Below, piece by piece: positions 18,833 to 32,492 of a DNA stretch of 40,246 bases (position 1 is the stretch's first letter; each line of letters begins with the position of its first letter). Source of the DNA: Candidatus Dojkabacteria bacterium (GTDB taxonomy: Bacteria; Patescibacteriota; Dojkabacteria; SC72). Under the pieces are notes generated by a model, which had not been told where the DNA came from, searched no databases, and was given only the letters and a program-made list of their open reading frames with translations. Location: the NCBI GenBank assembly GCA_040773125.1, contig JAXGWV010000003.1, positions 1 through 40,246 on the forward strand, given 5' to 3'. A program made the position numbers and the translations under genes.

Positions 18833-19417
18833 TTAATGAGATTCTAAATCAGAGAAGTCTCTTAACTCCTCCCATTTTTCTTCAAACTCATCTCGAGATT
18901 TAGCCTCTTCTACAAATTTATCGTATTGAGAATGAGAATTTATTCTTCTGTAATATTTAATTGGACACCAGTATCTTTCAGTTCTCGCACCAATTTCAGT
19001 ACAGAATCGAAAAAGATTGTTTACATAGCTACAGTATATGCAATTAAATTTTTCCATAGGATTGAGTAAACTTAATAGCTTTCTATCGTATACAAAGTAT
19101 TCGCTTTGTTTGACAGTTGGTATTCCGTAGAGTCTAAAACAAACTTGTTGGTATATTTGGACAGAGATATGAAGGATTACAGAGGGGATTATCATTGAAT
19201 ATATAAAGGGCATACTTAATAAATATTTCCAATTGAATTTTACTTTTGGAAACTTAATTCGTTTAACAATATTCTCTTCTTCAAGTATTTTATTAATATT
19301 TTCATCAAAAGTAGTACTAATTTTCTCTTTTAATTCTGTAAGTTTTATATATGCATCATTGTTTTTGGAGATTTCATTAATGTTCTCTTTTATCTTTTCA
19401 AGTAGGTTTTCTTTCAT
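18833..19417 (-). CDS. Conserved hypothetical membrane protein with CxxC
   Basis: Hydrophobic stretch then NCIYCSYVN and RTERYWCPIK. Confidence 0.75.
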   Translation of the reverse strand: MKENLLEKIKENINEISKNNDAYIKLTELKEKISTTFDENINKILEEENIVKRIKFPKVKFNWKYLLSMPFIYSMIIPSVILHISVQIYQQVCFRLYGIPTVKQSEYFVYDRKLLSLLNPMEKFNCIYCSYVNNLFRFCTEIGARTERYWCPIKYYRRINSHSQYDKFVEEAKSRDEFEEKWEELRDFSDLESH

Positions 19418-19525
19418 ATTAGTAATGTAAAAATTATTAGTTTATGCAAGGTATTATAGACTTTAATTGAAGATTTTACGATGTATATGTTTAATATCCA
19501 CCCAATTATCTAATATAATGTGTAT

Positions 19526-20257
19526 ATGGATGTTATTTATACAATTGATAGGGAGAAGGATATGAGTATGGTCTATACTATGCTTAAATCTGATGATCTT
19601 TCTGATAATTTGCAAAGAACAAAAAGAATGGGTATTAGTAGGCAATTGTTTAATAAGATAGCCGAGAGTAGCTCATATAATGAAGTAGAAAATGAAATTA
19701 ATGAACTTTACAATACAAAACTTTTAAATGACAAAGAACTACTTCTCTCTAAAACAAAACTATATCAGAGTAATTGGAATTTAATAAATGATATTTTCGA
19801 ACAAGAAACTGAAAGAGTAGTAGGAATGAAATGGAAATATGAAAAATACTATGTGATAGTATCATTGTTTCATCCTGGTGTTAGTAATATGTTGGGAGAC
19901 ACAGTATATCTCTGGATTTATGATGATTTAGATATCCATTTAAGGATAGCTGCTCATGAGTTACTAATGACCCATTTATGGCAATTCTTTTATAAAAACT
20001 TTCCAGAGGAGGATATTAATAATAATTGGAATAAATATTGGTCGGTAAATGAAATAACAACGACATTTATTTTAGGATTAGATAGTAAATTAAATAATCT
20101 ATGGTCAGATAGGATGAAGGGATACAAAAACTTTTTACAAAATTATCCTCAATTAAAAGAAGGAAGGGATTTATTAGTAAACAAGTATAAGAAGAGAAGT
20201 AGCTTTAAAGACTTTATTGATTATAGTCTACCAATGTTTACAACTCCGCGTATATGA
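19526..20257 (+). CDS. Hypothetical protein with degenerate HExxH-like motif; stop codon lies inside repeat R1
   Basis: IAAHELLMTH; TATAAT 6 nt before ATG 19526. Confidence 0.65.
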   Translation: MDVIYTIDREKDMSMVYTMLKSDDLSDNLQRTKRMGISRQLFNKIAESSSYNEVENEINELYNTKLLNDKELLLSKTKLYQSNWNLINDIFEQETERVVGMKWKYEKYYVIVSLFHPGVSNMLGDTVYLWIYDDLDIHLRIAAHELLMTHLWQFFYKNFPEEDINNNWNKYWSVNEITTTFILGLDSKLNNLWSDRMKGYKNFLQNYPQLKEGRDLLVNKYKKRSSFKDFIDYSLPMFTTPRI

Positions 20258-20324
20258 CATATTCCTTAACCTGAAGTTGGATTATGGAATTAATATATTC
20301 AAAATAGATTCGTTGATATATAAT
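20244..20324 (+). repeat. att-like module R1
   Basis: CTCCGCGTATATGACATATTCCTTAACC; first 7 nt identical to the tRNA-Asn 3' end (31914-31920); TATAAT at offset +75. Confidence 0.85.
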
Positions 20325-20331
20325 GCTAAAT

Positions 20332-20871
20332 ATGGAAATAGAAAAATTAGAATTAATTGATTTGCCAAAGACTGACGAATTACAAGTTACTACGAGGTTA
20401 TTTCCTATACCAAGTGCTATGGAAGATGGAAAGATACTAATACAAGAGATGAAAATAAATGGGAAGCTTAGCCCTGATATAGCTCTAATTGACGCTTCAG
20501 TTAATACTCCTGTCCAGTATTATGATGGAGTAAGTAAAATAACAGATATTTTTTACTCTACAACTGACAATAGACCAGTTGGTGTTATTTTAATGTCTCC
20601 GGAAGGAGAAATATCTTTGAAAGTATATAATCCCAAGACAGATGGTGGTCCTAGAGGATATTCAGTGACCAAGGGATGGACTATGCAAACAATTATTCCA
20701 GAAGGGACAACTTTAAGGTTCTTTGATTATCACTCTCCTAAGGGGTATGCAGAAAAGGAAGGGGATAAAATGTATGGGGAAACTGTAGTATCTACGGTAA
20801 CAGATGAAAAGGTATTAGAGAAATTTAAAGGAGCAGAAAAAGAGTTGTTAGATTATATGAAAAAGCTTTGA
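20332..20871 (+). CDS. Hypothetical protein (cassette 1 cargo)
   Basis: ~180-aa ORF; ATG 7 nt after the TATAAT of R1. Confidence 0.7.
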   Translation: MEIEKLELIDLPKTDELQVTTRLFPIPSAMEDGKILIQEMKINGKLSPDIALIDASVNTPVQYYDGVSKITDIFYSTTDNRPVGVILMSPEGEISLKVYNPKTDGGPRGYSVTKGWTMQTIIPEGTTLRFFDYHSPKGYAEKEGDKMYGETVVSTVTDEKVLEKFKGAEKELLDYMKKL

Positions 20872-20879
20872 GGAAAAAA

Positions 20880-20960
20880 CTTCTTGTATATGACATATTT
20901 CTGGACCTTAGAATATTTGTTAGCCTGAACTCTCAAGAGAATGACAAATTATTGTATAAT
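20880..20960 (+). repeat. att-like module R2
   Basis: CTTCTTGTATATGACATATTTCTGGACC preceded by an A-run; TATAAT at offset +75. Confidence 0.85.
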
Positions 20961-20989
20961 CTTTAATAAAATGTTATTACCTTACCAAT

Positions 20990-21670
20990 ATGACAAAACC
21001 CTTCCCAGCTGATGAAAGTAATTATATATTTACAGAGGGTATAGATTATTCAAAGACATCCGCAAATTCAATATGGGGAGATGAGGATATTTCTACCCAG
21101 AGTATGTTAAAGAAATTGGTTAAATCTGATAGCAAGTGGGTTAATCTTGCTTCGGGTGATGGAAGATACAACTGCTTGATTGCAAATATTGCAGGTGAGG
21201 TTACAGATGTAGATATTGATGAAGGCGCTTTAGAAAAACTTTTTTCTAATACTCCAGAGAATATTAGGAGTAAGCTTGTATTAAAATCATTTAATATTGT
21301 TAAGAAATTCCCTTTAGAAAGTAGTGCATATGATGGTTTATTTAGCTCTGGTACTCTTTATCTTTTTCCAGATGATGTATTTATGAATATTGCTAAAGAG
21401 ATATCAAGGATATTGAAGGTAGGAGGGAATATCGCATTAGAGTGGGCTATAAATATTAAAAGGATTTCTCCAACAGGAGAACCAGTTATCTTTGGTACGG
21501 AGCCTTTATATAATAGGGAGAGAGCAAGTAATGTTATACAGAAGGCTTTTCCAAATTTTAAAGTTAAGTTTATAGATGGAGAAAAGGTGTATTCTGATGA
21601 ATGTGAAGCCAACCCTCCATATCATTTTTACTGTGATACATTATTAATAGTGGGGGAAAAAATTCAATAA
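20990..21670 (+). CDS. Class I SAM-dependent methyltransferase (cassette 2 cargo)
   Basis: VNLASGDGR motif I, VDID, FPLESSAYDG, EISRILKVGG. Confidence 0.85.
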   Translation: MTKPFPADESNYIFTEGIDYSKTSANSIWGDEDISTQSMLKKLVKSDSKWVNLASGDGRYNCLIANIAGEVTDVDIDEGALEKLFSNTPENIRSKLVLKSFNIVKKFPLESSAYDGLFSSGTLYLFPDDVFMNIAKEISRILKVGGNIALEWAINIKRISPTGEPVIFGTEPLYNRERASNVIQKAFPNFKVKFIDGEKVYSDECEANPPYHFYCDTLLIVGEKIQ

Positions 21671-21673
21671 AAA

Positions 21674-21709
21674 CTCCCCGTATATGGCATATTCCTGAAC
21701 TTTAAGTTC
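21674..21709 (+). repeat. att-like module R3
   Basis: CTCCCCGTATATGGCATATTCCTGAAC, 3 nt after the methyltransferase stop. Confidence 0.85.
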
Positions 21710-21712
21710 TCT

Positions 21713-23017
21713 TTACCAAAGGGGGTTTTGTTCGTATATTGATTTTGTGGAGGGAGAGAGTACATTAAGAAATATATTTCTTGGTTCCTCTTCTCTTACT
21801 ACATTCCAACAAGAAAGAAGGATAGAAGCTTGGTTTGGAAAAATTTGGTCTCTTTGTATTTCTCCTGTATGAGTATTTACTGTGTCACCATCTCCAAAGA
21901 ATGGGTGAGTTAAACTTGGGAATTCCTGGTGGAGGCGTTTTAATGCATTAAGTGTATCTTGTGGATATACAATTCCCATATTTATTAGGGCTGAGATTGT
22001 TACAATAGGTTGAGGAATATATGGATCTGTAGATTCTCCTGTTTGTGGAACTCTGTATTCATAATATCTTCCATCTGGTCCCAATCCTGCAGAATATCCA
22101 TAGTGTCCATAGTTGTGTTGTTCTCCATACTCTCTTTGTAGTTGTATTGTACTTTTTATTGTTTCCTCCCACTGAGGACTAAATTTATCTTCTGGGATTA
22201 TTAGGGTTGGCCATCCTAGTGCAAAGTATTCTCCATCCCATGTACGTCTTCCTTTTCGTTGTTTTGAATCTTTAAAGAAACTATTTTCTGTTCGCCTGTT
22301 TATTAACTTACTCATTTCATGTAATATCTCATCTTCGCATAATAGATAGGCGATTCGTGCTTCTGAGAGAACATCATATTGCCAAGGTTCAAAACATTTG
22401 TCATTTATATTGTAGCATCCATTAAAAAACCCAGTTGAATGGTCAAACATAAAAGGTAGATCCATTTTATTGAGGTAAGTTTCAATAGAGTCAGAATATT
22501 CAGGAAATTGTACACCTGTCATTTTACTAAAAGCTATTAACCATGCCATGTCTACAGTAGAAATTTGTTGTTTTATTTTTATTTCTGTATTTGGCCACTG
22601 TTTTAGTATTGTTCCTGTTGATGGTTGTATAGAGTTAACAAATAGACCCTTATCTTCTCTTGTTTTAATAAAGATTTCAGGATCTTCTGTCATTTTTATA
22701 ATTGTAGTTATAGTTTTTCCTAATCTTTCATATGTTTCTTGTTCTGAAATAAAGCCCATTGAATATGCCCCACCTATAGAAGCTAAGAGAAACCCTATAT
22801 TTGTAGGACTAGTTTTATCTATTTTAGAAACTTCCCCCGTAGGGATACCATCATAAAGATGATGATGTAATTGATCTGAAGGGAGGCCTGTATCATTGTA
22901 TGTCATTTCACTAATGCTGTTCCAAGCCATCTTCGCATATTGAAGATATTCCTCTTTTATTTCAGGTGGGAGAGTTTCTATTACTTCTTTATCGTATATA
23001 GGTGATTCTAGACTCAT
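21713..23017 (-). CDS. DUF3131/glycoamylase-like glycoside hydrolase related to beta-1,2-glucan enzymes (cassette 3 cargo)
   Basis: TGLPSD, KTSPTNIG, ISTVDMAWL, YDVLSEARI motifs. Confidence 0.7.
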   Translation of the reverse strand: MSLESPIYDKEVIETLPPEIKEEYLQYAKMAWNSISEMTYNDTGLPSDQLHHHLYDGIPTGEVSKIDKTSPTNIGFLLASIGGAYSMGFISEQETYERLGKTITTIIKMTEDPEIFIKTREDKGLFVNSIQPSTGTILKQWPNTEIKIKQQISTVDMAWLIAFSKMTGVQFPEYSDSIETYLNKMDLPFMFDHSTGFFNGCYNINDKCFEPWQYDVLSEARIAYLLCEDEILHEMSKLINRRTENSFFKDSKQRKGRRTWDGEYFALGWPTLIIPEDKFSPQWEETIKSTIQLQREYGEQHNYGHYGYSAGLGPDGRYYEYRVPQTGESTDPYIPQPIVTISALINMGIVYPQDTLNALKRLHQEFPSLTHPFFGDGDTVNTHTGEIQRDQIFPNQASILLSCWNVVREEEPRNIFLNVLSPSTKSIYEQNPLW

Positions 23018-23078
23018 TATTGGTAATTATAGATGAAAATATAAATTATAGATAGGAAACTTGTGGAGGTTTAAAAAA

Positions 23079-23189
23079 CTCCTTGTACTGAGTATTGTGC
23101 GAACTGAAATAATAACATTGTTGTTGCAAGATGTGGGTAATGAAGAGGTGCAGTCTTTAGTTAGAAATATACTCATTAAAGAGGCTTAA
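23079..23189 (+). other. R4 / putative attL carrying the orphan 3' end of the serine recombinase gene
   Basis: AAAAAA-CTCC-TTGTACTGAGTATTGTGCGAAC; open 36-codon frame LLVLSIVRTEIITLLLQDVGNEEVQSLVRNILIKEA* in register with the recombinase CTC codon. Confidence 0.75.
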
Positions 23190-23267
23190 TAGAACTTTAC
23201 TTTTTTAAGTTAGAGATCCCCTTATATTAGATAGTATATGGGAATATAACTATGTATAACTAGAGTA

Positions 23268-24161
23268 TTAAATACTCATTTCTCCATTGTAAATCTTTTT
23301 GATTAAGTCTTTAGCATATTCTAATTCTTCACCATTGCTTACAAAGACACCTGTGTTTCCTGTCCCCCAGTGTCCTTTGCCTTTGACATCCTTTACATTA
23401 GATTTTGGATTGTCAATATCTTCATAATCTAAAGATAAGTAAACATCTAATTTTTCCTTATTAATTACTATGCAAGCCAAATTCTTAATTGTTTTATATG
23501 CCCAATAATTTTTTAGTTCCTTCTTTTGTATGTCATCACCCAAGTTAAGGATATATTCATCTAACTCTTCAGTATAATCAACAATGTTTTTATTAGCAGT
23601 TTTTAGTTTGTATTCAATTCTGTCATGAGGATACTTGTCACCAGAGATATGTGAACTTCTAGGTTTTTCACTTACTGCTGATGCCAACTGTATCATCAGG
23701 AAGTCGTTTTCAAATAAGGTATATCTAATTAACTCTATGTTTCTATTAATCTGTTTTATAGCATTATCATCATATTTATTGAAATCAGTTGCTATACATA
23801 ATAATCTAGGATTATCCCAATCAATATCTACTTTTGTACCGATTTTCTCTCTACACAGAATATCAAAATCAGCTTTGTGTTCCATGAACCAATCTAGGTA
23901 GAAGAGACCCTGATTAATAACATTGGTGTTAGAGTCTAGTTTGTATTCTATAATTACAGGACAGTTATTTTCATCCAATCCTAGTGTATCTACTCTTCCA
24001 TTATCAATAATATATTCAGAGGCTAAAAATCTTACTCCAAAGAGCTCTTCTAAGTTCTTCTCCACAATATCTTGTATCTGCTTTTCTAACCTTAGGCTTT
24101 TAGCTTTTATCTGTGTACTTTTATTTGTTGGAGAGATATTAAAGAGTTTTATTTCTGACAT
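23268..24161 (-). CDS. NucS/DUF91-like PD-(D/E)xK endonuclease with DUF5655-like C-terminus
   Basis: LEKQIQ..E, GRVDTLGLD, IIEYK, QGLFY; C-terminal GHWGTG. Confidence 0.8.
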   Translation of the reverse strand: MSEIKLFNISPTNKSTQIKAKSLRLEKQIQDIVEKNLEELFGVRFLASEYIIDNGRVDTLGLDENNCPVIIEYKLDSNTNVINQGLFYLDWFMEHKADFDILCREKIGTKVDIDWDNPRLLCIATDFNKYDDNAIKQINRNIELIRYTLFENDFLMIQLASAVSEKPRSSHISGDKYPHDRIEYKLKTANKNIVDYTEELDEYILNLGDDIQKKELKNYWAYKTIKNLACIVINKEKLDVYLSLDYEDIDNPKSNVKDVKGKGHWGTGNTGVFVSNGEELEYAKDLIKKIYNGEMSI

Positions 24162-24348
24162 TTATATCTATTCTTAATTTACATTAATGTTGTAATTATA
24201 TATCATTACTCATATTTATAAAAATAGGCTTAAGATATTAAAACCTATTAAATATAACCATTGCTATATTATTGGAAGGAGTTAGACTTAAAAAATTCAT
24301 TAATATGAAGTATACTAGCAATGTAATTACACGAAGGAATGTAAAGAT

Positions 24349-26928
24349 ATGGCCAAAGAAGCTCAAGCAAGAATTAAAATTAATGAACTGTTAACTGCTT
24401 CAGGTTGGAGATTACTTGATGACCCAGAAAAAGGGAGAGCTAATGTTTCTTTAGAGAGTAATGTAAAGATTGAAAATAATCCAGGGGACAATTTTGAAAA
24501 TGTTGAAACTAGAAATGGATTTGTAGACTATCTCTTGTATGATGCAAATAACTATCCAATATGTGTCTTAGAAGCAAAATCAGAAGATAGACATCCTTTA
24601 GATGGTAAAGAACAGGCAAGAGACTATGCTAACTCCTTAGGTTCAAATGTAAGGTACATAATACTTTCTAATGGAAACATGCACTTCCTTTGGGATATGA
24701 AGCTAGGAAATCCTACTTCCATATCTCATTTTCCAACACTAGAATCATTAGTATCCTCAAAAGATTTTGTACCAGATAAAAATAGGTTAGTTAATACACA
24801 GGTTGGAAGTGATTACATAGCTCTTACTCAAGATCCTGATTACAAGCTTGATCCTAGGTGGAATACAGAAGAAGGCAGAAATCAGATGATTGAAAGAGAA
24901 GGATTGAGATTTCTAAGACCATATCAGTTAAATGCAATTATAACTGTTCAAAAAGCTGTAGCAGAAGATAAGAATAGATTTTTGATGGAAATGGCAACAG
25001 GTACAGGTAAGACCTTGCTATCTGCAGCCCTGATTAAACTCTTTCTTAAGACTAAAAATGCTAGAAGAGTACTCTTTCTTGTAGATAGAATTGAATTAGA
25101 AAATCAAGCAAAAAGGAACTTTGATGCATATTTAAAACCTGACTTCACAACAGTTGTTTACAAGGAAGCTAGGGATGAGTGGAAGAAAGCAGAAATAGTT
25201 GTAACAACAATACAGAGTATCTCTTCAAACAACAAATACCTTAGGCTCTTCTCTCCAAATGACTTTGATTTAATTATCTCTGATGAGGCACATAGGTCTA
25301 TCTCTGGAAACAGTAGAGTTATCTTTGAGTACTTCATAGGATACAAGCTTGGTTTAACTGCTACCCCTAAGGACTATCTTAAAAAGGTTAATCAAGAAGA
25401 TTTAGCTGAACAGGACCCAAGAGAACTAGAAAGAAGAATACTTCTATCTACTTACAAAACTTTTGGATGCGAAAGTGGGGAACCAACATTTAGATATAGT
25501 CTTGTAGATGGTGTAAGAGATGGCTTTTTAGTTAATCCTAGAACAATAGATTGTAGAACAGAGGTTACAACTCAATTACTTTCAGAGGAAGGTTTTGTTA
25601 TGACACAAGATCCAGATTCAGAAGAGGGAGAATATATTAGTACTGATGAGCAAGGAAACCAAGTGGTATATAAAGCAAGAGACTTTGAAAAAAAATTCTT
25701 TAGTGAAGAGACAAATAGAAAGTTTGTAGAAGCCTTTATGCAAAATGCTCAAAGAGATCCAATATCTGGGGAGATTGGTAAATCAATAATTTTTTGTGTC
25801 AGTCAGAGACATGCATCAAAGATTACAAATCTACTTAATGAATATGCTATGCAAATGTATCCAGATAAATACCAGTCAGACTTTGCCTTACAGATAACCT
25901 CAAATGTACAAGATGCTCAGCTTTATTCAGTACAGTTTGCTAATAATAATCTAAGAGGGCTATCAAAGTTTCTTGATGGATACAAATCAAGTAAGACCAG
26001 AGTATGTGTAACTGTTGGTATGATGACAACAGGATATGATTGCGAGGACCTATTAAATGTAGCTCTTCTTAGGCCAATATTTTCTCCTACAGATTTTGTA
26101 CAGATAAAAGGTAGAGGTACAAGAAGATTCAGATTCAGATATTCACAAAGAGATGGTATGGCAGTTAATGAAATTGTAAAAGATAAGAAGTATTTTAAAC
26201 TCTTTGATTTCTTCGCTAACTGTGAATACTTTGAAGAAGAGTATCCATATGATGAGATATTACCGTTACCAAAACAGAGAAAAGGAACTACAGCAGATCC
26301 TCGTGGTCCATTTGGACCTATAGGAGGAAAAGATTCTGAAGGTATCTATGGTGGAACTGATGTAATAACGGAATTTAATGAAATAGAAATAGATGAAAAT
26401 GGTATGAGAATTGATAGAGAGCTTTACTCAAGTAAATTTGAGGAGAAGCTTAAAGAAGTGTATACAGAGATTCCAGAGTTTAAAGAGGCTGTAGATACTA
26501 ACGACTATGAGACAGCTCAGTATGTTGTTACATCTCAACTCTTTGATAAACCAGAGGAGTATTACAATATGGATAGATTAAGAGAGAGTTACAAGAGTGA
26601 TAGAAGAATATTCTTATCAGATATTTTAGAGAAGGTCTTTAAAGGAAAGGCATTCAAAACAAAGAATGATTTAGCAGAGGAAGATTTCCAAAACTACTTG
26701 GTAGTTAATAATGTTCCTGCTGAAAACTTCTATAATGTAAAAGAGTTCTTTAAACTATATGTTGCTGATGAGACTTTTAGAAGGGATATAAATACGAATG
26801 AAATAAATAAATATGCAAATGATCCTAAACTTTTTGAAGTAATAAATAAATTGGGGAAGGAGAATATCCAGTATGTTACAGACTATGTAAAGGACAATGT
26901 TCAAATAAATAAATATTACAGCCAATAA
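24349..26928 (+). CDS. hsdR: Type I restriction enzyme R subunit
   Basis: VDYLL..VLEAK nuclease motif, LRPYQ, MATGTGKT, DEAH, LTATP, TTGYD, QIKGRGTR. Confidence 0.93.
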   Translation: MAKEAQARIKINELLTASGWRLLDDPEKGRANVSLESNVKIENNPGDNFENVETRNGFVDYLLYDANNYPICVLEAKSEDRHPLDGKEQARDYANSLGSNVRYIILSNGNMHFLWDMKLGNPTSISHFPTLESLVSSKDFVPDKNRLVNTQVGSDYIALTQDPDYKLDPRWNTEEGRNQMIEREGLRFLRPYQLNAIITVQKAVAEDKNRFLMEMATGTGKTLLSAALIKLFLKTKNARRVLFLVDRIELENQAKRNFDAYLKPDFTTVVYKEARDEWKKAEIVVTTIQSISSNNKYLRLFSPNDFDLIISDEAHRSISGNSRVIFEYFIGYKLGLTATPKDYLKKVNQEDLAEQDPRELERRILLSTYKTFGCESGEPTFRYSLVDGVRDGFLVNPRTIDCRTEVTTQLLSEEGFVMTQDPDSEEGEYISTDEQGNQVVYKARDFEKKFFSEETNRKFVEAFMQNAQRDPISGEIGKSIIFCVSQRHASKITNLLNEYAMQMYPDKYQSDFALQITSNVQDAQLYSVQFANNNLRGLSKFLDGYKSSKTRVCVTVGMMTTGYDCEDLLNVALLRPIFSPTDFVQIKGRGTRRFRFRYSQRDGMAVNEIVKDKKYFKLFDFFANCEYFEEEYPYDEILPLPKQRKGTTADPRGPFGPIGGKDSEGIYGGTDVITEFNEIEIDENGMRIDRELYSSKFEEKLKEVYTEIPEFKEAVDTNDYETAQYVVTSQLFDKPEEYYNMDRLRESYKSDRRIFLSDILEKVFKGKAFKTKNDLAEEDFQNYLVVNNVPAENFYNVKEFFKLYVADETFRRDINTNEINKYANDPKLFEVINKLGKENIQYVTDYVKDNVQINKYYSQ

Positions 26929-26930
26929 TT

Positions 26931-29378
26931 ATGTTAAATGGAGATACAAAAAGAAAAATAAAAAATGCAAGAGATATTCTAGTAGGGAAGATTCCTGTTC
27001 CTACAGCACAAGTAGAACAGATTACTCTTGCACTTATGTATAAGTTCATGAGTGATATGGATGAACAAGCCAAGAAGTTAGGAGATAAGACTAGCTTCTT
27101 TATGGGAGAGTATGAAAAATATTCATGGGATAAGATAACAGACACCTCTTTGTCAGCATATGATAGGGTGGCTTTGTATTCTGAAGGATTAGAGAAGATG
27201 AATAACAATCCCAATGTACCACAGCTGTTTAGAGACATATTTAAAGGGGCTTTCTTGCCCTTTAAAGACCCAGAAACATTAAAGCTGTTCTTAGACCAGA
27301 TAAATGAAATTGAGTATACTCAAAGTGAAGATTTAGGTGATGCATATGAGTACTTATTATCTGTAATGGGCTCTCAGGGCGATGCAGGGCAATTCAGGAC
27401 CCCTAGACACATCATAGACTTCATAGTAGATATTGTAGATCCTAAGAAGGAGGACAAGATACTAGATCCTGCCTGTGGTACTGCTGGATTCCTTATCTCT
27501 GCATTCAAACATATTCTAAAACACAATACCACTAAAGATTCTAAGATTCTGGGAGATGCACTTTCTCCTATGGATAGAAGAAACTTAACAAAGAATTTTG
27601 TAGGCTATGATATTTCTCCTGAGATGAGAAGATTATCATTGGTGAATATGTATTTACATCAGTTCCCAGACCCACAGGTATATGAATATGATACCTTAAC
27701 TAGTACAGATCATTGGGATGAAGATTTTGATTGTATATTAGCTAATCCTCCTTTTATGACTCCTAAAGGTGGTATAAGACCTCACAAGAGATTTGCAATA
27801 CAGGCAAATAGGTCAGAAGTCTTATTTGTAGATTATATAATGGAACATCTTAGTACTTCTGGCAAAGCAGGTATTATTGTTCCAGAGGGTATTATTTTTC
27901 AATCTTCTAATGCATACAAGAATTTAAGAAAGTTACTTGTAGAAGATAATTATCTTTGGGGTGTAGTATCACTTCCTCAGGGAGTATTTAACCCATATGC
28001 GGGTGTTAAGACTAGTGTATTACTTTTAGACAAGAATATTGCCAAGAAGACTGATAATATCTTGTTTGTAAATGTGGAAAATGATGGTTTTGATTTAGGT
28101 GCACAGAGAAAGGAGAATGGGAAGAATGATTTACCTAAGATTTTAGATGGTTTGAAGAAGTACAAGAAATGGATATTGAATGATGAAGAAATCAAGGAAG
28201 ACGAATTATTTAATACCCAAATCATTGGAAAAAGTAGGATTAAGGAGAGTGGAGATTACAATTTAAATGGTTATAGGTATCAAAATAGCGAAAGAGGTAT
28301 TTATGTGAAGGGAAAATGGGAGAGTGTCTTGTTAAGAGATATTCTTGAAGATGTGAGATATACTCACAAGATCAAAAAAAGTGAGTATCTACCAGAGGGG
28401 GAATATCCAATAATTGATCAATCAAGTAATTTTATAGCAGGCTACTGTGATAATAAAGATTTTCTTTACAATGTAACCAAACCAGTTGTTATATTTGGTG
28501 ATCATACTAGAGAGCTTAAGTATGTTGATTTTGATTTTGTATTAGGTGCTGATGGTGTAAAGATTCTTCAATTTAAAGAAGTTGCTTCAGCAAAGTATTT
28601 ATACTATGTGCTAAAAAACACTCCAATCAAGAGTTTGGGTTATTCCCGTCATTTCAAGGAATTAGTCAGGTTAGAAATTCCTCTTCCCCCAATAGAAGAA
28701 CAAAAGAAAATAGTAGAAGAACTTGATAGATACCAAAGGGTTATAGATGGAGCAAGAATGGTTATAGATAATTGGAAGCCTGAGATAGAGATAAACCCAG
28801 AGTGGAAAATAATTAAATTAAAAGAGGTATGTGCACTTGTAAGGGGAGTAACTTATTCAAAGGATGATGAAGTTGAGAATGGAGGTAAAATAGTGCTTAG
28901 GGCAAACAATATTGATTTAATGGGGGGGCTTAATCTTACTGACTTAAAATATATTAAGAAAGAGCTAAAAGAAACTCAGAAGCTCAAAAAGGGAGATATA
29001 TTTATTTGTATGTCTAGTGGAAGTAAATCTCATATAGGCAAAGTTGCTTTCATAGACAATGATACAGACTATTATCTTGGAGGATTTATGGGTTGTGTAA
29101 GAGCATATGATAATATAAATGCAAAATATCTTTATTACATACTGAATTCACAGGCATTCAACAAATATTTAAGAGATCAGATTAGTGGTGTGAATATAAA
29201 TAATATAAATCAGGGAATTTTTTATAATTTTGGCATACCTCTTCCTTCTATAGAGGAACAAGAGGATATTGTAGAGAAGTTATCCAAGCTGGAAGATTCC
29301 GTTTCAAAGAATAAAGAGATAATCAATTTCTTTGAAAAGAAATCTGCAGATGTAATTTCAAAAATTTTCAATGGTTAA
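26931..29378 (+). CDS. hsdM: Fused type I N6-adenine methyltransferase and specificity subunit (HsdM-HsdS)
   Basis: GQFRTP, DPACGTAGFL, ANPPF, then two TRDs each ending in IPLP(P/S)IEEQ..IV. Confidence 0.92.
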   Translation: MLNGDTKRKIKNARDILVGKIPVPTAQVEQITLALMYKFMSDMDEQAKKLGDKTSFFMGEYEKYSWDKITDTSLSAYDRVALYSEGLEKMNNNPNVPQLFRDIFKGAFLPFKDPETLKLFLDQINEIEYTQSEDLGDAYEYLLSVMGSQGDAGQFRTPRHIIDFIVDIVDPKKEDKILDPACGTAGFLISAFKHILKHNTTKDSKILGDALSPMDRRNLTKNFVGYDISPEMRRLSLVNMYLHQFPDPQVYEYDTLTSTDHWDEDFDCILANPPFMTPKGGIRPHKRFAIQANRSEVLFVDYIMEHLSTSGKAGIIVPEGIIFQSSNAYKNLRKLLVEDNYLWGVVSLPQGVFNPYAGVKTSVLLLDKNIAKKTDNILFVNVENDGFDLGAQRKENGKNDLPKILDGLKKYKKWILNDEEIKEDELFNTQIIGKSRIKESGDYNLNGYRYQNSERGIYVKGKWESVLLRDILEDVRYTHKIKKSEYLPEGEYPIIDQSSNFIAGYCDNKDFLYNVTKPVVIFGDHTRELKYVDFDFVLGADGVKILQFKEVASAKYLYYVLKNTPIKSLGYSRHFKELVRLEIPLPPIEEQKKIVEELDRYQRVIDGARMVIDNWKPEIEINPEWKIIKLKEVCALVRGVTYSKDDEVENGGKIVLRANNIDLMGGLNLTDLKYIKKELKETQKLKKGDIFICMSSGSKSHIGKVAFIDNDTDYYLGGFMGCVRAYDNINAKYLYYILNSQAFNKYLRDQISGVNINNINQGIFYNFGIPLPSIEEQEDIVEKLSKLEDSVSKNKEIINFFEKKSADVISKIFNG

Positions 29379-30024
29379 AAATATACAAAAGCAAAAAACA
29401 TTAAAAGATTTTATTAAAGAGACAACATTTAAACCTGACTCTACAAGAGATGATAATTCCTTCTTTAGTGCATATTATGGACCGAAACCATATGGAGAAT
29501 CTTTAGATGATATTTTCAAAATAATTAGAGATATTTATGATAACAATAAGAAACCAGATGACTTATTTTGGGACTTTACTACAAACATTTTACATACATA
29601 TATGGAGTTTGAAGATCACATTGCTTTAAAGATTTCATCAATAGAGAAATACTTTGATCCAGACCCTCCTCTAAGTGCTATATTAGAGTTAGAATCTTCA
29701 ATTTCCCCAATTTACTATACAGGAAGTAAATGTGCCAAATATCTACTTGCAAACTCAGGAGGCAAACTAACGAATGATGATATAGAGTTTCTAGCAAAAT
29801 ACAAAGGGACAAGAAATAAGATTTTTGAACACAACTTAGATCCAGAGGAATATCCTTTTGTGGTAAGGGTCTTTCATTTTTCAGTATTTTCAACAGACTC
29901 AGAATTAGAGATAGAGTTGATTAACTCTAAAAATGAAAAAGAAGAAAGAGGTTTTATTGACTATTATGATGATAATTACAAGTTAATAGAAATTTGTATT
30001 AGATATTTGAAGTCAATTAAGTAA
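29371..30024 (+). CDS. Hypothetical protein with HEPN-like RxxxxxH motif
   Basis: RNKIFEH at residues 148-154; start overlaps the hsdMS end. Confidence 0.6.
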   Translation: MVKNIQKQKTLKDFIKETTFKPDSTRDDNSFFSAYYGPKPYGESLDDIFKIIRDIYDNNKKPDDLFWDFTTNILHTYMEFEDHIALKISSIEKYFDPDPPLSAILELESSISPIYYTGSKCAKYLLANSGGKLTNDDIEFLAKYKGTRNKIFEHNLDPEEYPFVVRVFHFSVFSTDSELEIELINSKNEKEERGFIDYYDDNYKLIEICIRYLKSIK

Positions 30025-30083
30025 GAAAAATACCTAAAAAACTAGGGAAAAACTTGGAAAAACATTGATATTTTTAACAAAAA

Positions 30084-30296
30084 ATGGCAAAAACATACAC
30101 AAATCTAAAGAAAAACCAATCAACATCTGAACTAAGGAAATTCATATCCTCTATCATAGACATAGCTACTAGACCACAAATATTCTCTCAATGGATTAAA
30201 GAAAAGAAGTCCTGGAGACACATTCTTAATGTACCTGAAAAGATAAAAGTAAGAGAGGAATTTGAAATAAAGAAGATTCCAAAAGAAGAAAAATAG
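30084..30296 (+). CDS. Small basic protein upstream of the recombinase
   Basis: 70-aa Lys-rich ORF; position only. Confidence 0.5.
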   Translation: MAKTYTNLKKNQSTSELRKFISSIIDIATRPQIFSQWIKEKKSWRHILNVPEKIKVREEFEIKKIPKEEK

Positions 30297-30324
30297 TTTT
30301 TCGGCGCTTATAGGGGATTGAAAC
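30296..30324 (+). repeat. Solitary CRISPR-repeat-like sequence
   Basis: GTTTTTCGGCGCTTATAGGGGATTGAAAC: GTTT start and ATTGAAAC end; single copy. Confidence 0.4.
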
Positions 30325-30365
30325 AACAACATTCTTTAGCATAAAAATAGCTAAAAACAACAAAA

Positions 30366-31952
30366 ATGGAACAAAATACCTCAAAAATTAAAGTATTTGC
30401 ATACCTTAGAAAATCTACTAAGCAAGAGAGAGAAGGTACACCTGAGAAACAACCCAACTCCCTTAACTATCAAAGAAGAGTAGTTAAAGAGATTGCAGAG
30501 AGGAACAATCTAAAGATTGTTAACCAATTTGAGGATAAAGAGTCAGGATACAAAGCATATGTAAGGAAAGACTTTAATAGAATGTGTGAGCTACTAGATG
30601 AACAGGGCTCAGAAGGTGAAATTAAAGGTATAGTTTGTAGTGAACACAACAGATTAGCAAGAAACTTTGGAGATGGAGGCAGGATACTCTGGTATTTACA
30701 GAATGGAGAGATAGAAGCTGTGTATACCCATGACAAAATATTCTCTAACAGTAGCAGTGATCAAATGATGTTGGCTATTAATTTTGCAATGGCTAAGAAC
30801 TCTAGTGATGAAACAAGCTATAGAATGAAGCAAACATGGAAGAGTAAAGCTATTGCAGGAATGCCACCAAACCAAAGAATAGTTGGATATAAATATGTTG
30901 GAAACAAAGGTCAGAAAGTATGGGTTAAAGACCCCAAAACAGCCCCATTGATTGTAAAAGTATTTGAAACATATGCAACTGGAGAATATACGATAGAAGA
31001 GTTGGCAAAATATGCTGCTTCAATAGGACTTGTTAATAAAAGAAATGATAATAAACCATATGGAGAAAATACAGTAAGAGAATGGTTATCAAAGAAAGAA
31101 TATATTTGTATCTTTGAGTATGAAGGGGAAAGACATAAAGGAATGTATCCTAGGATGATAAGTGATGATTTATTCTACAAAGTTCAAGATGTTCTTCTAC
31201 TTAGATCTCATAAGAGGGGAAAAACCAAAAACATGTATGCATACTCTCCTAAACTTATTAAGTGTGGTAAGTGTGGTGAATATATGACAGGAGACATTCA
31301 AAAGGGAATAGTGTATTACAAATGTCCTCACAGAAAGGAGCCATGTAAGAGTAATCCTAATGAAAGGCTTCCTCACCTTAAAGAAACTTTTGTTGATGAA
31401 AGTATTATGAAGAAGTTAAAACAGATAGAAATATCAGAAGAGAAATGGAAAGAACTCTCTGCATTAGTTAAAGCAAATTATCAATATGAGGTAGCTCAAC
31501 ACGAGGAGGATATTAGAGAGATGAGAACTAAGATAGGTTATGAAGAAGGTTTTAAGAAACAGTATTCAAAAGCTATATCAGAGCTAAGGATTAAAGGTAC
31601 ATTGACTAAGGAAGAAGAAGAGGAATTGAAAGGCTATCAAGATTTAATATTAGATTGTAACAAAACTATTGAGTTGTATCAGGAAGCAATAATCAAAGCT
31701 AAGGAAATTATGAATGAGATTCCATTTGAAATGGAAGGGTTCCTAGAGTCTTTGAAGGTAGCTAGTGCAAGATTTAACCAAGGTACACCTGCTAATAAAA
31801 GGGTGATTGTAGAGACCCTTTGTGCGAACTTAATATGGGATGGTAAAAATATTGTCTGGAATTGGAAAAACAAGTATAAGAAACTAATAAATCAGGAAGA
31901 AGACATAGATTGGCTCCGCGACCAGGACTCGAACCTGGAACCAAACGGTTAA
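30366..31952 (+). CDS. Large serine recombinase (resolvase + recombinase + zinc ribbon + coiled coil)
   Basis: YLRKST catalytic motif, ESG, NRLARN, CGKCG...YYKC..C; last 13 codons (WLRDQDSNLEPNG) are antisense tRNA. Confidence 0.93.
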   Translation: MEQNTSKIKVFAYLRKSTKQEREGTPEKQPNSLNYQRRVVKEIAERNNLKIVNQFEDKESGYKAYVRKDFNRMCELLDEQGSEGEIKGIVCSEHNRLARNFGDGGRILWYLQNGEIEAVYTHDKIFSNSSSDQMMLAINFAMAKNSSDETSYRMKQTWKSKAIAGMPPNQRIVGYKYVGNKGQKVWVKDPKTAPLIVKVFETYATGEYTIEELAKYAASIGLVNKRNDNKPYGENTVREWLSKKEYICIFEYEGERHKGMYPRMISDDLFYKVQDVLLLRSHKRGKTKNMYAYSPKLIKCGKCGEYMTGDIQKGIVYYKCPHRKEPCKSNPNERLPHLKETFVDESIMKKLKQIEISEEKWKELSALVKANYQYEVAQHEEDIREMRTKIGYEEGFKKQYSKAISELRIKGTLTKEEEEELKGYQDLILDCNKTIELYQEAIIKAKEIMNEIPFEMEGFLESLKVASARFNQGTPANKRVIVETLCANLIWDGKNIVWNWKNKYKKLINQEEDIDWLRDQDSNLEPNG

Positions 31953-31985
31953 CAGCCGTTCGCTCTACCATTGAGCTATCGCGGA
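31911..31985 (-). tRNA. tRNA-Asn (GUU) with CCA
   Basis: TCCGCGA...AACGG-CTGTTAA-CCGTT...CCAGG-TTCGAGT-CCTGG-TCGCGGA-G-CCA; TATAAT upstream at 31998-32003. Confidence 0.97.
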
Positions 31986-32018
31986 TTAGCTGGGTCTATT
32001 ATATCCATCTCCTCTTCA

Positions 32019-32492
32019 TTATTCAATATCTTCATCTTCAAGATCATCATAGTATCTGAAATCAAAGAAATCTTTTAGGTCTTCAAATGATCTACGACTA
32101 TCACATGGGAAGAGTGTATATATAATGGAATTGCCCTCTCCTATCTCAAATTGCTCACAGTATGGCACAGATTCCTCATCTATTGTTTGATGCATTTTGA
32201 TAGAGTGTTTAATCTGGTTGATAATACCCTTTGTTAATTGTAAGTCATAGACAGGAATCCTCTCTTCGTTGTTTCTTGCTCTAGTTTGGATATTTCCTAA
32301 AAGTCCATCGACTAGTAGATATCTAGCTGTAGGAGTAATCCTTCCATATTGTCTGAATTTTTCTATATAAATAAATGAACCATCTGGAAGTTTCTTTCGT
32401 TCAAAAAATCGTTCATATCCCTTTAGGAGTTCAGCTGGAGAGTATGACTCTCCGTCACCATCTTCATAATCATCCTCATATTCGATTGGCAT
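32019..32492 (-). CDS. Acidic hypothetical protein
   Basis: 157-aa ORF with no recognised motif. Confidence 0.6.
   Translation of the reverse strand: MPIEYEDDYEDGDGESYSPAELLKGYERFFERKKLPDGSFIYIEKFRQYGRITPTARYLLVDGLLGNIQTRARNNEERIPVYDLQLTKGIINQIKHSIKMHQTIDEESVPYCEQFEIGEGNSIIYTLFPCDSRRSFEDLKDFFDFRYYDDLEDEDIE

Follow-up and report, generated by a model that had tools for sequence, protein, structure and literature searches.

Does a large serine recombinase (LSR) gene of Candidatus Dojkabacteria bacterium contain its own attachment site, and does integration consequently exchange the C-terminus of the enzyme? This question is raised by a locus in a stretch of 40,246 nucleotides (nt), hereafter the window, which is contig C3 (JAXGWV010000003.1) of the 674-kb, 70-contig assembly GCA_040773125.1 with a GC content near 33%. 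An earlier note, made from the sequence of the window alone, had placed an integrated element at 23079-31952. It claimed that the recombinase gene of this element ends within a tRNA gene read in antisense, that joining the two ends of the element at a shared CTCC would supply an alternative in-frame C-terminus, and that the circular and the integrated forms encode different proteins. The observation underlying these claims was confirmed and extends past the window across a clade of recombinases. We consider it likely that the recombinase gene spans the attachment site of the circular form (attP), with predicted products of 552 amino acids (aa) from the circular and 528 aa from the integrated form.

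Recombinase gene and tRNA target

The features on which the argument rests are the following.

30366..31952, plus strand: predicted LSR, integrated form of 528 aa, the body of which ends at W516 (31911-31913); assigned by domain profiles
31911..31985, minus strand: tRNA-Asn(GTT), called by ARAGORN, with a CCA end contributed by the island
23079..23082: core CTCC of the left junction (attL), located by the joint of the empty site, the start of homology and the unrelated left flanks
31914..31917: core CTCC of the right junction (attR), located by tRNA comparison and the joint of the empty site
23083..23130, plus strand: P' arm of the attachment site, delimited by alignment of islands
23079..23189, plus strand: 36 codons and a stop codon, predicted recombinase C-terminus in the circular form, supported by frame, alignment, substitutions and the homologue P0019

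Based on a profile search the open reading frame (ORF) 30366-31952 is predicted to encode a large serine recombinase with the domains Resolvase, Recombinase and Zn_ribbon_recom. The catalytic domain PF00239 was detected at residues 10-165 (E 3.4e-18) and both PF07508 and PF13408 were matched as well. The residues R15, S17 and T18 are invariant in all three sequences compared and nearly so across 41 sequences, in which the zinc-ribbon cysteines C300, C303, C320 and C327 are invariant. The recombinase profile also matches the C-terminal domain of the A118 integrase (4kis, E 2.3e-18). A coiled-coil insert, formed by the helices 360-410 and 421-468 between the zinc-ribbon strands and the closing strands in the AlphaFold model of P0019, was read across from this homologue to the window's enzyme by alignment. 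No other LSR was identified in the 674-kb assembly.

The C-terminus of the integrated form reads D-I-D-W, followed by LRDQDSNLEPNG (residues 517-528) and the stop codon. Over its last 42 bases the ORF reads antisense to the 3' half of tRNA-Asn, the single tRNA-Asn among the 40 tRNA genes called in the assembly. Since this tRNA spans 31911-31985 on the minus strand, W516 (31911-31913) lies opposite its encoded CCA. Codons 517-528 run antisense to the acceptor and T arms, and the ORF stops at a TAA in the anticodon loop. ORF call and ARAGORN thus bore out the claim that the integrated ORF ends in tRNA antisense.

Ends of the island

Positions 23083-31913 together with one copy of CTCC constitute an 8.8-kb integrative island at the 3' end of tRNA-Asn. 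For the right end we queried 41 genomes of the same order (G handles) with the tRNA and its right flank, of which 40 matched, and ARAGORN called tRNA-Asn in 27 of the 31 loci examined. In 14 of these 27 loci the tRNA ends in GGAG without an encoded CCA and is mostly followed directly by a T-rich trailer (two of the 14 lie at contig ends and two have a single C before the trailer). In 12 relatives the tRNA ends in GGAG-CCA, and in five of these (G018, G020, G007, G005 and G002) the antisense of an LSR 3' end comes next. Loci with a recombinase gene or a remnant of one show the order GGAG, CCA, recombinase antisense. Recombinase-bearing and recombinase-free sites therefore diverge after GGAG, and this point is the right junction proposed in the earlier note.

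The left end was resolved by public sequencing data. Twenty runs from nine studies contained 50% or more of the words sampled from 22600-32400, and four of these runs were analysed, all as Logan contigs. In run X6 a contig of depth 177 represents the empty site: it joins 23078 to 31914, skipping 8835 bases and carrying one extra A, and its flanks have a depth of about 180-190. The island is present in the same run on a separate contig of 8886 nt with a depth of 30 and 59 differences over about 8.87 kb. The first 21 bases of that contig correspond to 21648-21668, so that the island directly follows an older attachment site, referred to below as site (c), without the 1.4-kb cassette 21678-23078. 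In run X1, which may be the sample the window came from, a contig of depth 7.3 joins 21673 to 31914 and lacks both the cassette and the island. Run X15 contains a 12.8-kb contig with the island (23072-31943, 59 differences) behind another left flank, which resembles the one found at this site in G013 and G019; these belong to other species of the genus. Public contigs and the window together show the island, 99.3% identical, in three or more contexts with its ends unchanged, and the empty site is present too. These data establish the island ends, which agree with those given in the earlier note, and show its occurrence in several genomic backgrounds.

The sequence to the left of the tRNA differs among the relatives: G014 carries an orthologue of ORF 18833-19417 in this place, and G008 and G035 carry that of ORF 20323-20871. 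The region of about 19440-31913 is thus variable, with the island as its latest layer. Partial copies of tRNA-Asn (G002:C99, G019:C5, G013:C8) were considered as displaced tRNA halves and were rejected, as all of them lie at contig ends and represent assembly breaks.

Attachment core and P' arm

The tetranucleotide CTCC occurs 112 times on the plus strand of the window, so that its presence at both ends is by itself uninformative. A search of the window for a second copy of the tRNA 3' end, allowing up to 3 mismatches in 25 nt, revealed no longer tRNA repeat, and a tRNA 3' repeat is absent from the 20 largest direct-repeat families listed for the window. The crossover presumably occurs within the four bases CTCC and, by the known behaviour of LSRs, would take place at a dinucleotide inside them.

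In the P' arm the positions 23086-23130 are identical in the islands of the window, G019, G178 and G155; that of G156 differs at two positions. Counted from the core, the motif CGAAC occupies bases 17-21 on the tRNA side, as part of the T-loop, and bases 22-26 in the P' arm, which is an outward shift of 5 nt. By analogy with other LSRs the P' arm appears to mimic the tRNA with its outer motif displaced 5 nt outward. The predicted attP and the predicted target site (attB) are short and have only CTCC in common, the attP half-site being longer than the attB half-site.

Some further observations were made at these sites. The encoded CCA proved unusable as a marker of island origin, since about half of the 40 tRNA genes encode it. 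An 11-mer, TTGTGCGAACT, is found in the P' arm (23095-23105) and again in the recombinase gene (31820-31830), in different frames; its copy in the recombinase gene coincides with a conserved T-L-C-A-N motif. The repetition may be due to chance or mark a second binding site. In G155 (L044 2600-2944, minus strand) an ATG in the P' arm opens an ORF of 114 aa which reads out into the flank; the window shares its first residues, but there the frame closes early.

The alternative C-terminal tail

The triplet CTC is codon 517 at the right junction and the first codon of the tail frame at the left junction; joining at the core therefore keeps the frame. From 23079 this frame reads LLVLSIVRTEIITLLLQDVGNEEVQSLVRNILIKEA and then a stop codon, 36 codons in total. 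The chance of an open frame of 36 codons was estimated at about 0.046 with the shuffled window and at 0.025 with the local intergenic composition, and the window sequence alone is accordingly suggestive. The observation is solid owing to the comparative and metagenomic data.

We aligned six left ends (window, G019, G178, G155, G156 and G220); a seventh, L096, is metagenomic. The flanks of the six are unrelated and homology begins at CTC(C/T), followed by three variable bases. The frame continuing that of the LSR contains no stop codon in any of the six, whereas the other two sense frames contain 3-7 stop codons. Both the shared CTCC and the in-frame alternative of 36 codons described in the earlier note are thereby upheld. 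The tail comprises 36-37 residues in five left ends and 49 in G220, the left end of which has a DNA identity of 69%, an open frame and similar residues.

Substitutions were counted in codons 11-36, which lie past the likely protein-binding arm. Among six close variants 66 synonymous and 85 non-synonymous codon differences were found, i.e. 44% synonymous, compared to 7-29% in the five other frames. Permutation of columns gave a mean of 22%, and five of 1000 permutations reached 44%. As the six variants are kin, this pattern amounts to support short of proof. TGG in front of the core in G155 and G220 was considered as a sign of a fused recombinase and was discarded, for no recombinase ORF lies upstream. 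Altogether, alignment and substitution pattern support the interpretation of the alternative tail as a conserved coding segment whose frame is continuous with the recombinase.

Homologues and spread of the arrangement

Among 8000 candidates scored, 56 homologues of the recombinase (P handles) were found at E <= 1e-20. A C-terminal tail of tRNA antisense with D-S-N or a variant of it is present in 19 of these, 16 stop three residues past the junction and 21 end otherwise. In the loci that could be inspected the three-residue endings belong to tRNA variants with an early stop.

The homologue P0019 (557 aa, 47% identical to the window's LSR, encoded on a contig of 7464 nt) ends in WLRILGIVRTEIITLLLQDIGNEELKLLVKNTLIKKVY. 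Judged by its similarity to the left ends, this C-terminus is the tail family of the island fused to an LSR: the tail is about 69% identical to that of the window, compared to 47% for the body. In P0040 (36% identical) the tail is related too; about a third of its residues match the tail of the window, a level much like that of its body. The comparison of C-termini that the earlier note had proposed hence uncovered a similar tail in one homologue and a related one in another. Other non-tRNA tails of 12-43 residues occur in P0010, P0030, P0033, P0034 and P0039.

A scan of metagenomes yielded 44 loci (L handles), 23 of them with a complete recombinase 3' end. Sixteen of these ends read into a called tRNA-Asn, two into a tRNA-like sequence, one is unclear and four (L083, L085, L086 and L089) have long non-tRNA tails, which start at the CTCC core. 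Between L083 and L089 the body (243/495 residues) and the tail (18/37) are both 49% identical. LSRs with a mutual identity of 25-50% all read into tRNA-Asn in one common frame; the recombinase-into-tRNA arrangement is old within the clade.

Variants of this arrangement were also observed. The ORFs of distant recombinases in L049, L052 and L053 (20-26% identical) end inside tRNA-Met, likewise in antisense. In L047 (11492-11696) the anticodon loop of tRNA-Asn is interrupted by a group I intron (Rfam RF00028, 65.9 bits), similarly in L082 and L084, and the recombinase ORF of L047 continues into the intron antisense.

Proposed mechanism

On this basis the LSR probably placed the island into the single tRNA-Asn gene of a Dojkabacteria-like genome of the candidate phyla radiation. 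Excision would join the island ends in a circle, in which attP would consist of the LSR 3' end, the core and the P' arm. In the circle the ORF would run from W516 through the core into the 36 codons of the left end, giving 552 aa. After integration these codons would lie 8.8 kb away and the ORF would instead read 12 tRNA-antisense codons or, in hosts with an earlier stop in the tRNA, three codons past the junction. This reading presumes that the circle forms and that the tail belongs to the active, integrating enzyme. The "split" of the gene described in the earlier note is overstated: the ORF does cross the junction, but all domains are kept, and a C-terminal swap is the correct description.

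The tail is a hydrophobic extension for which the AlphaFold model of P0019, at a mean pLDDT of 82.7, predicts two helices, 524-538 and 542-556; it is positioned past the end of the solved C-terminal domain of the A118 integrase. Loss of the tail might alter the direction, the response to a partner protein or the activity of the inserted enzyme, although we regard this as less likely than not. Excision by characterised LSRs requires a separate directionality factor. A still less probable extension of the idea is that the C-terminus tells the recombinase which state its own DNA is in, the long form from the circle integrating and the tail-less form being altered, which would amount to a built-in directionality switch. 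The conserved two-helix tail would then permit, or be required for, integration between attP and attB, and the rearrangement would act in place of, or alongside, a separate directionality factor. A change in direction or partner dependence is plausible because, according to the accessible part of a recent structural study, the C-terminus of the SPbeta integrase repositions to contact the directionality factor (10.1101/2025.01.03.631226). The same part of that source refers to this C-terminus as being termed part of a "molecular toggle switch" in earlier work (10.1101/2025.01.03.631226). Since the island's left end would carry the tail along, arrays and exchanges would pass tails from one enzyme to another, and the higher identity of the P0019 tail relative to its body fits such a reassignment.

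Several results weigh against a gene that spans attP and a tail of functional importance. The attP junction that the earlier note had asked for was found neither in the contigs of the four runs, a weak objection as contigs drop rare forms, nor, as an attP- or attB-type junction, in the genome assembly or the retrieved loci; viral contigs gave no match to the junction pattern or the P' arm. The claim of different C-termini in the circle and the integrated form is supported by the conserved in-frame tail and the fusion in P0019, but not by a circular junction. A search for the P0019 tail in recombinase-length proteins among 5.8 billion clusters returned P0019 alone. The tail helices are modelled with low confidence (means over 10 residues of pLDDT 37-74). 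Variable sites number 6, 7 and 11 at the three codon positions, a weak excess at the third, and one antisense frame, an ORF of 49 aa in the window, is likewise open in all six left ends, its synonymous share being 21-29% and its start not conserved. In G019 the tail frame is intact while the recombinase gene is deleted to a remnant, so that over short times an open frame requires no selection. G005 has a full recombinase, and neither inspection by eye nor a DNA search revealed a matching left end. Finally, in L090 an LSR A with a long tail is followed after 6.8 kb by an LSR B and tRNA-Asn. This is a tandem array which holds the junction of L089, and a fused ORF is thus no proof of a circle.

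Alternative explanations

It is quite conceivable, although we lean somewhat against it, that the overlap is a neutral consequence of the element's compactness, with the attachment site falling at the end of the gene by chance, that the tail is tolerated or of slight help in folding, that the swap has no regulatory meaning and that direction is set by a separate directionality factor. The arbitrary nature of the integrated tail, which consists of 12 residues dictated by the tRNA or of only three where it stops earlier, is in line with this, as are the dissimilar tail sequences of different subfamilies and the location of the tail in a low-confidence part of the model, past the solved domain of the A118 integrase. 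Moreover, a small ORF upstream of the recombinase in all five elements compared could encode a conventional cofactor. However, in two subfamilies the tail has changed no more rapidly than the body of the enzyme. It shows a coding-type substitution pattern, and tails of 29-50 residues in most families exceed the about 13 codons expected by chance in AT-rich DNA, albeit with imperfect ascertainment. The contact of the SPbeta C-terminus with the directionality factor, as reported in the accessible part of the source, also argues against a meaningless extension (10.1101/2025.01.03.631226).

That the conserved 108 bases serve as attachment or regulatory DNA or as a small separate gene on either strand, and not as part of the recombinase, seems improbable. 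The first 30 or so bases need conservation as P' arm in any case, as the identity of 23086-23130 in four islands illustrates, one antisense frame is open in all six left ends, and the window contains ORFs of 42 aa (plus strand) and 49 aa (minus strand) with start codons of their own. Since the left flanks are unrelated, the start codon of any separate gene must lie within the island, but the starts are not kept: G220 has GCG in place of the GTG at codon 7, and G178, G155 and G156 lack the antisense ATG. The recombinase frame, moreover, has the highest synonymous fraction, its tail is fused to recombinases in P0019 and P0040, and similarity at the protein level is still present at 33% identity. 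We likewise give little credit to an origin of the long form mainly in tandem arrays, where the left end of a newcomer would be donated to the recombinase of its older neighbour. L090 shows exactly such an arrangement, L084 contains three tail-like remnants, and three older attL-like junctions are present in the window. Nevertheless, islands that are nearly identical and have the same ends occur in different flanks and species, which requires a free, joined intermediate at some stage, and the left neighbour of the island in the window is not a recombinase gene. A recombinase gene that spans attP thus remains our preferred reading.

Comparison with known systems

The LSRs A118/LI, SPbeta SprA, phiC31 and Bxb1 have the same domain order as the predicted enzyme (catalytic domain, recombinase domain, zinc ribbon with coiled-coil insert), and they resemble it in their short attachment sites with few common bases and an outer attP motif further out. 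For the SPbeta integrase the accessible part of the source describes the second DNA-binding domain as shifted by 4 bp from attB to attP (10.1101/2025.01.03.631226), compared to 5 nt in the window element. Unlike in these LSRs, the window's gene crosses attP, so that its own reaction would exchange a C-terminal extension, and the element inserts at the 3' end of a tRNA gene, to which the island supplies the CCA. A literature search, with poor coverage of subscription journals, retrieved no report of an LSR whose gene extends across attP or terminates within the targeted tRNA.

The earlier note had drawn an analogy to the SSV1-type integrases of archaea, tyrosine recombinases with attP inside int, whose gene is cut by integration into two non-functional parts. 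This analogy is loose. The attachment site inside the recombinase ORF and the tRNA target are common to both, whereas the window's enzyme has serine recombinase domains only, and instead of a gene partitioned into two dead halves the integrated 528-aa ORF keeps all three domains with 36 codons displaced. Islands of tyrosine integrases in tRNA genes are comparable in their insertion at the tRNA 3' end, the reuse of the site and the arrays of old elements. They differ in their long tRNA 3' repeat; the window element has four shared bases and does not duplicate the tRNA body.

A closer parallel to the exchange of C-termini is provided by the integration-dependent immunity of mycobacteriophage BPs and its relatives. 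According to the accessible part of the source, attP of BPs lies inside a gene, the prophage product of which is C-terminally shortened and differs in activity from the viral form (PMC4557955). The window element would share the location of attP within a coding sequence and, as predicted, different C-termini in the free and the integrated state. In BPs, as far as that part of the source describes it, the gene concerned encodes the repressor, the integrase is a tyrosine recombinase and an ssrA-like degradation tag is lost; in the window the recombinase gene itself is affected. The last residues of the tails vary (KEA, KES, KKV, KKVL, KKVY) with no conserved Ala-Ala end, and tails ending in A, S, V, L or Y do not look like one conserved tag.

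LSRs are valued as genome-editing tools for their one-way action, and the setting of direction is an active structural question. The clade described here provides naturally paired long and short versions of an enzyme, whose attP, attB, attL and attR sites are defined and measure about 50 bp. The arrangement would also explain the pile-up of defence islands at the single tRNA-Asn of reduced genomes and their movement between species. Recent structural work, in its accessible part, treats the integrase C-terminus as part of a directional switch (10.1101/2025.01.03.631226).

Other genes of the island

Besides the recombinase the island carries the following genes, among them those of a type I restriction-modification system.

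23268..24161, minus strand: PDC-S18 candidate defence protein (NucS_C and DUF5655 domains), cargo; domain profiles
24349..26928, plus strand: predicted type I restriction subunit (ResIII helicase), cargo; domain profiles
26931..29378, plus strand: predicted type I methyltransferase fused with two specificity domains, cargo; domain profiles
29371..30024, plus strand: cargo ORF of 217 aa without family match in the profile search
30084..30296, plus strand: ORF of 70 aa directly 5' of the recombinase, with a counterpart small ORF in 5/5 elements compared

No family match was obtained for two island ORFs upstream of the recombinase. The small basic ORF 5' of the recombinase was detected in the window (30084-30296), L034, L083, L085 and L089 and often overlaps the recombinase start; a weak common motif (F, PQ, K) is present in all five. 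It could encode a cofactor or regulator. The prediction of a complex between recombinase residues 285-528 and the 70-aa ORF gave a score of 0.01. Scans for promoters and terminators in 22950-23350 and 29900-30450 gave no signal above shuffled sequences.

Older elements at the site

Three older attL-like junctions precede the island.

20244..20275, plus strand: junction (a), CTCC and P' arm of a second element family; D2 repeat
20880..20911, plus strand: junction (b); the tRNA of G008 starts here, after its orthologue of ORF 20323-20871
21674..21705, plus strand: junction (c), identified by contigs joining 21673 to 31914 and 21668 to the island

They coincide with the 31-nt repeat family D2 (20244, 20880 and 21674), in which a CTCC-like core is followed by an arm. 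In the matching frame these arms encode a peptide weakly similar to the tails of L083 and L089 (21-24% identity). In L084 the three tail-like remnants lie upstream of one recombinase. Beside the tRNA, G007, G018/G020, G002 and G019 retain remnants of the 3' end of a recombinase gene, which range from about 33 to more than 80 codons. As their lengths vary, they resemble ordinary deletions that could not take out the tRNA. We infer repeated insertion on the tRNA-proximal side, where older elements would decay. The left half of the target is presumably of little importance, since the flanks differ in every genome.

The remnants lie between the tRNA and the conserved left flank in L007/L032 (G007), L005 (G018), L006/L033 (G020), L012/L035 (G002) and L038 (G019). 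G019 has lost the recombinase and retains the restriction genes, with an R subunit 91% identical. The window region 19440-23078 is composed of single-gene cassettes with a Myb-like ORF, an ORF of 182 aa, a methyltransferase and a glycoamylase-like gene, each with a CTCC-like core and an A-run on its left and the 31-nt D2 repeat on its right. The glycoamylase-like gene was detected in none of the 40 other genomes searched. A different repeat was observed in G000, where a 36-nt sequence starting with the last bases of a tRNA and CCA is present at C1:258-293, C35:5812-5847 and C38:3361-3396. It follows tRNA-Ser(CGA) and one of two tRNA-Asp genes, occurs again about 2 kb downstream of the other tRNA-Asp and may be the attachment repeat of another element.

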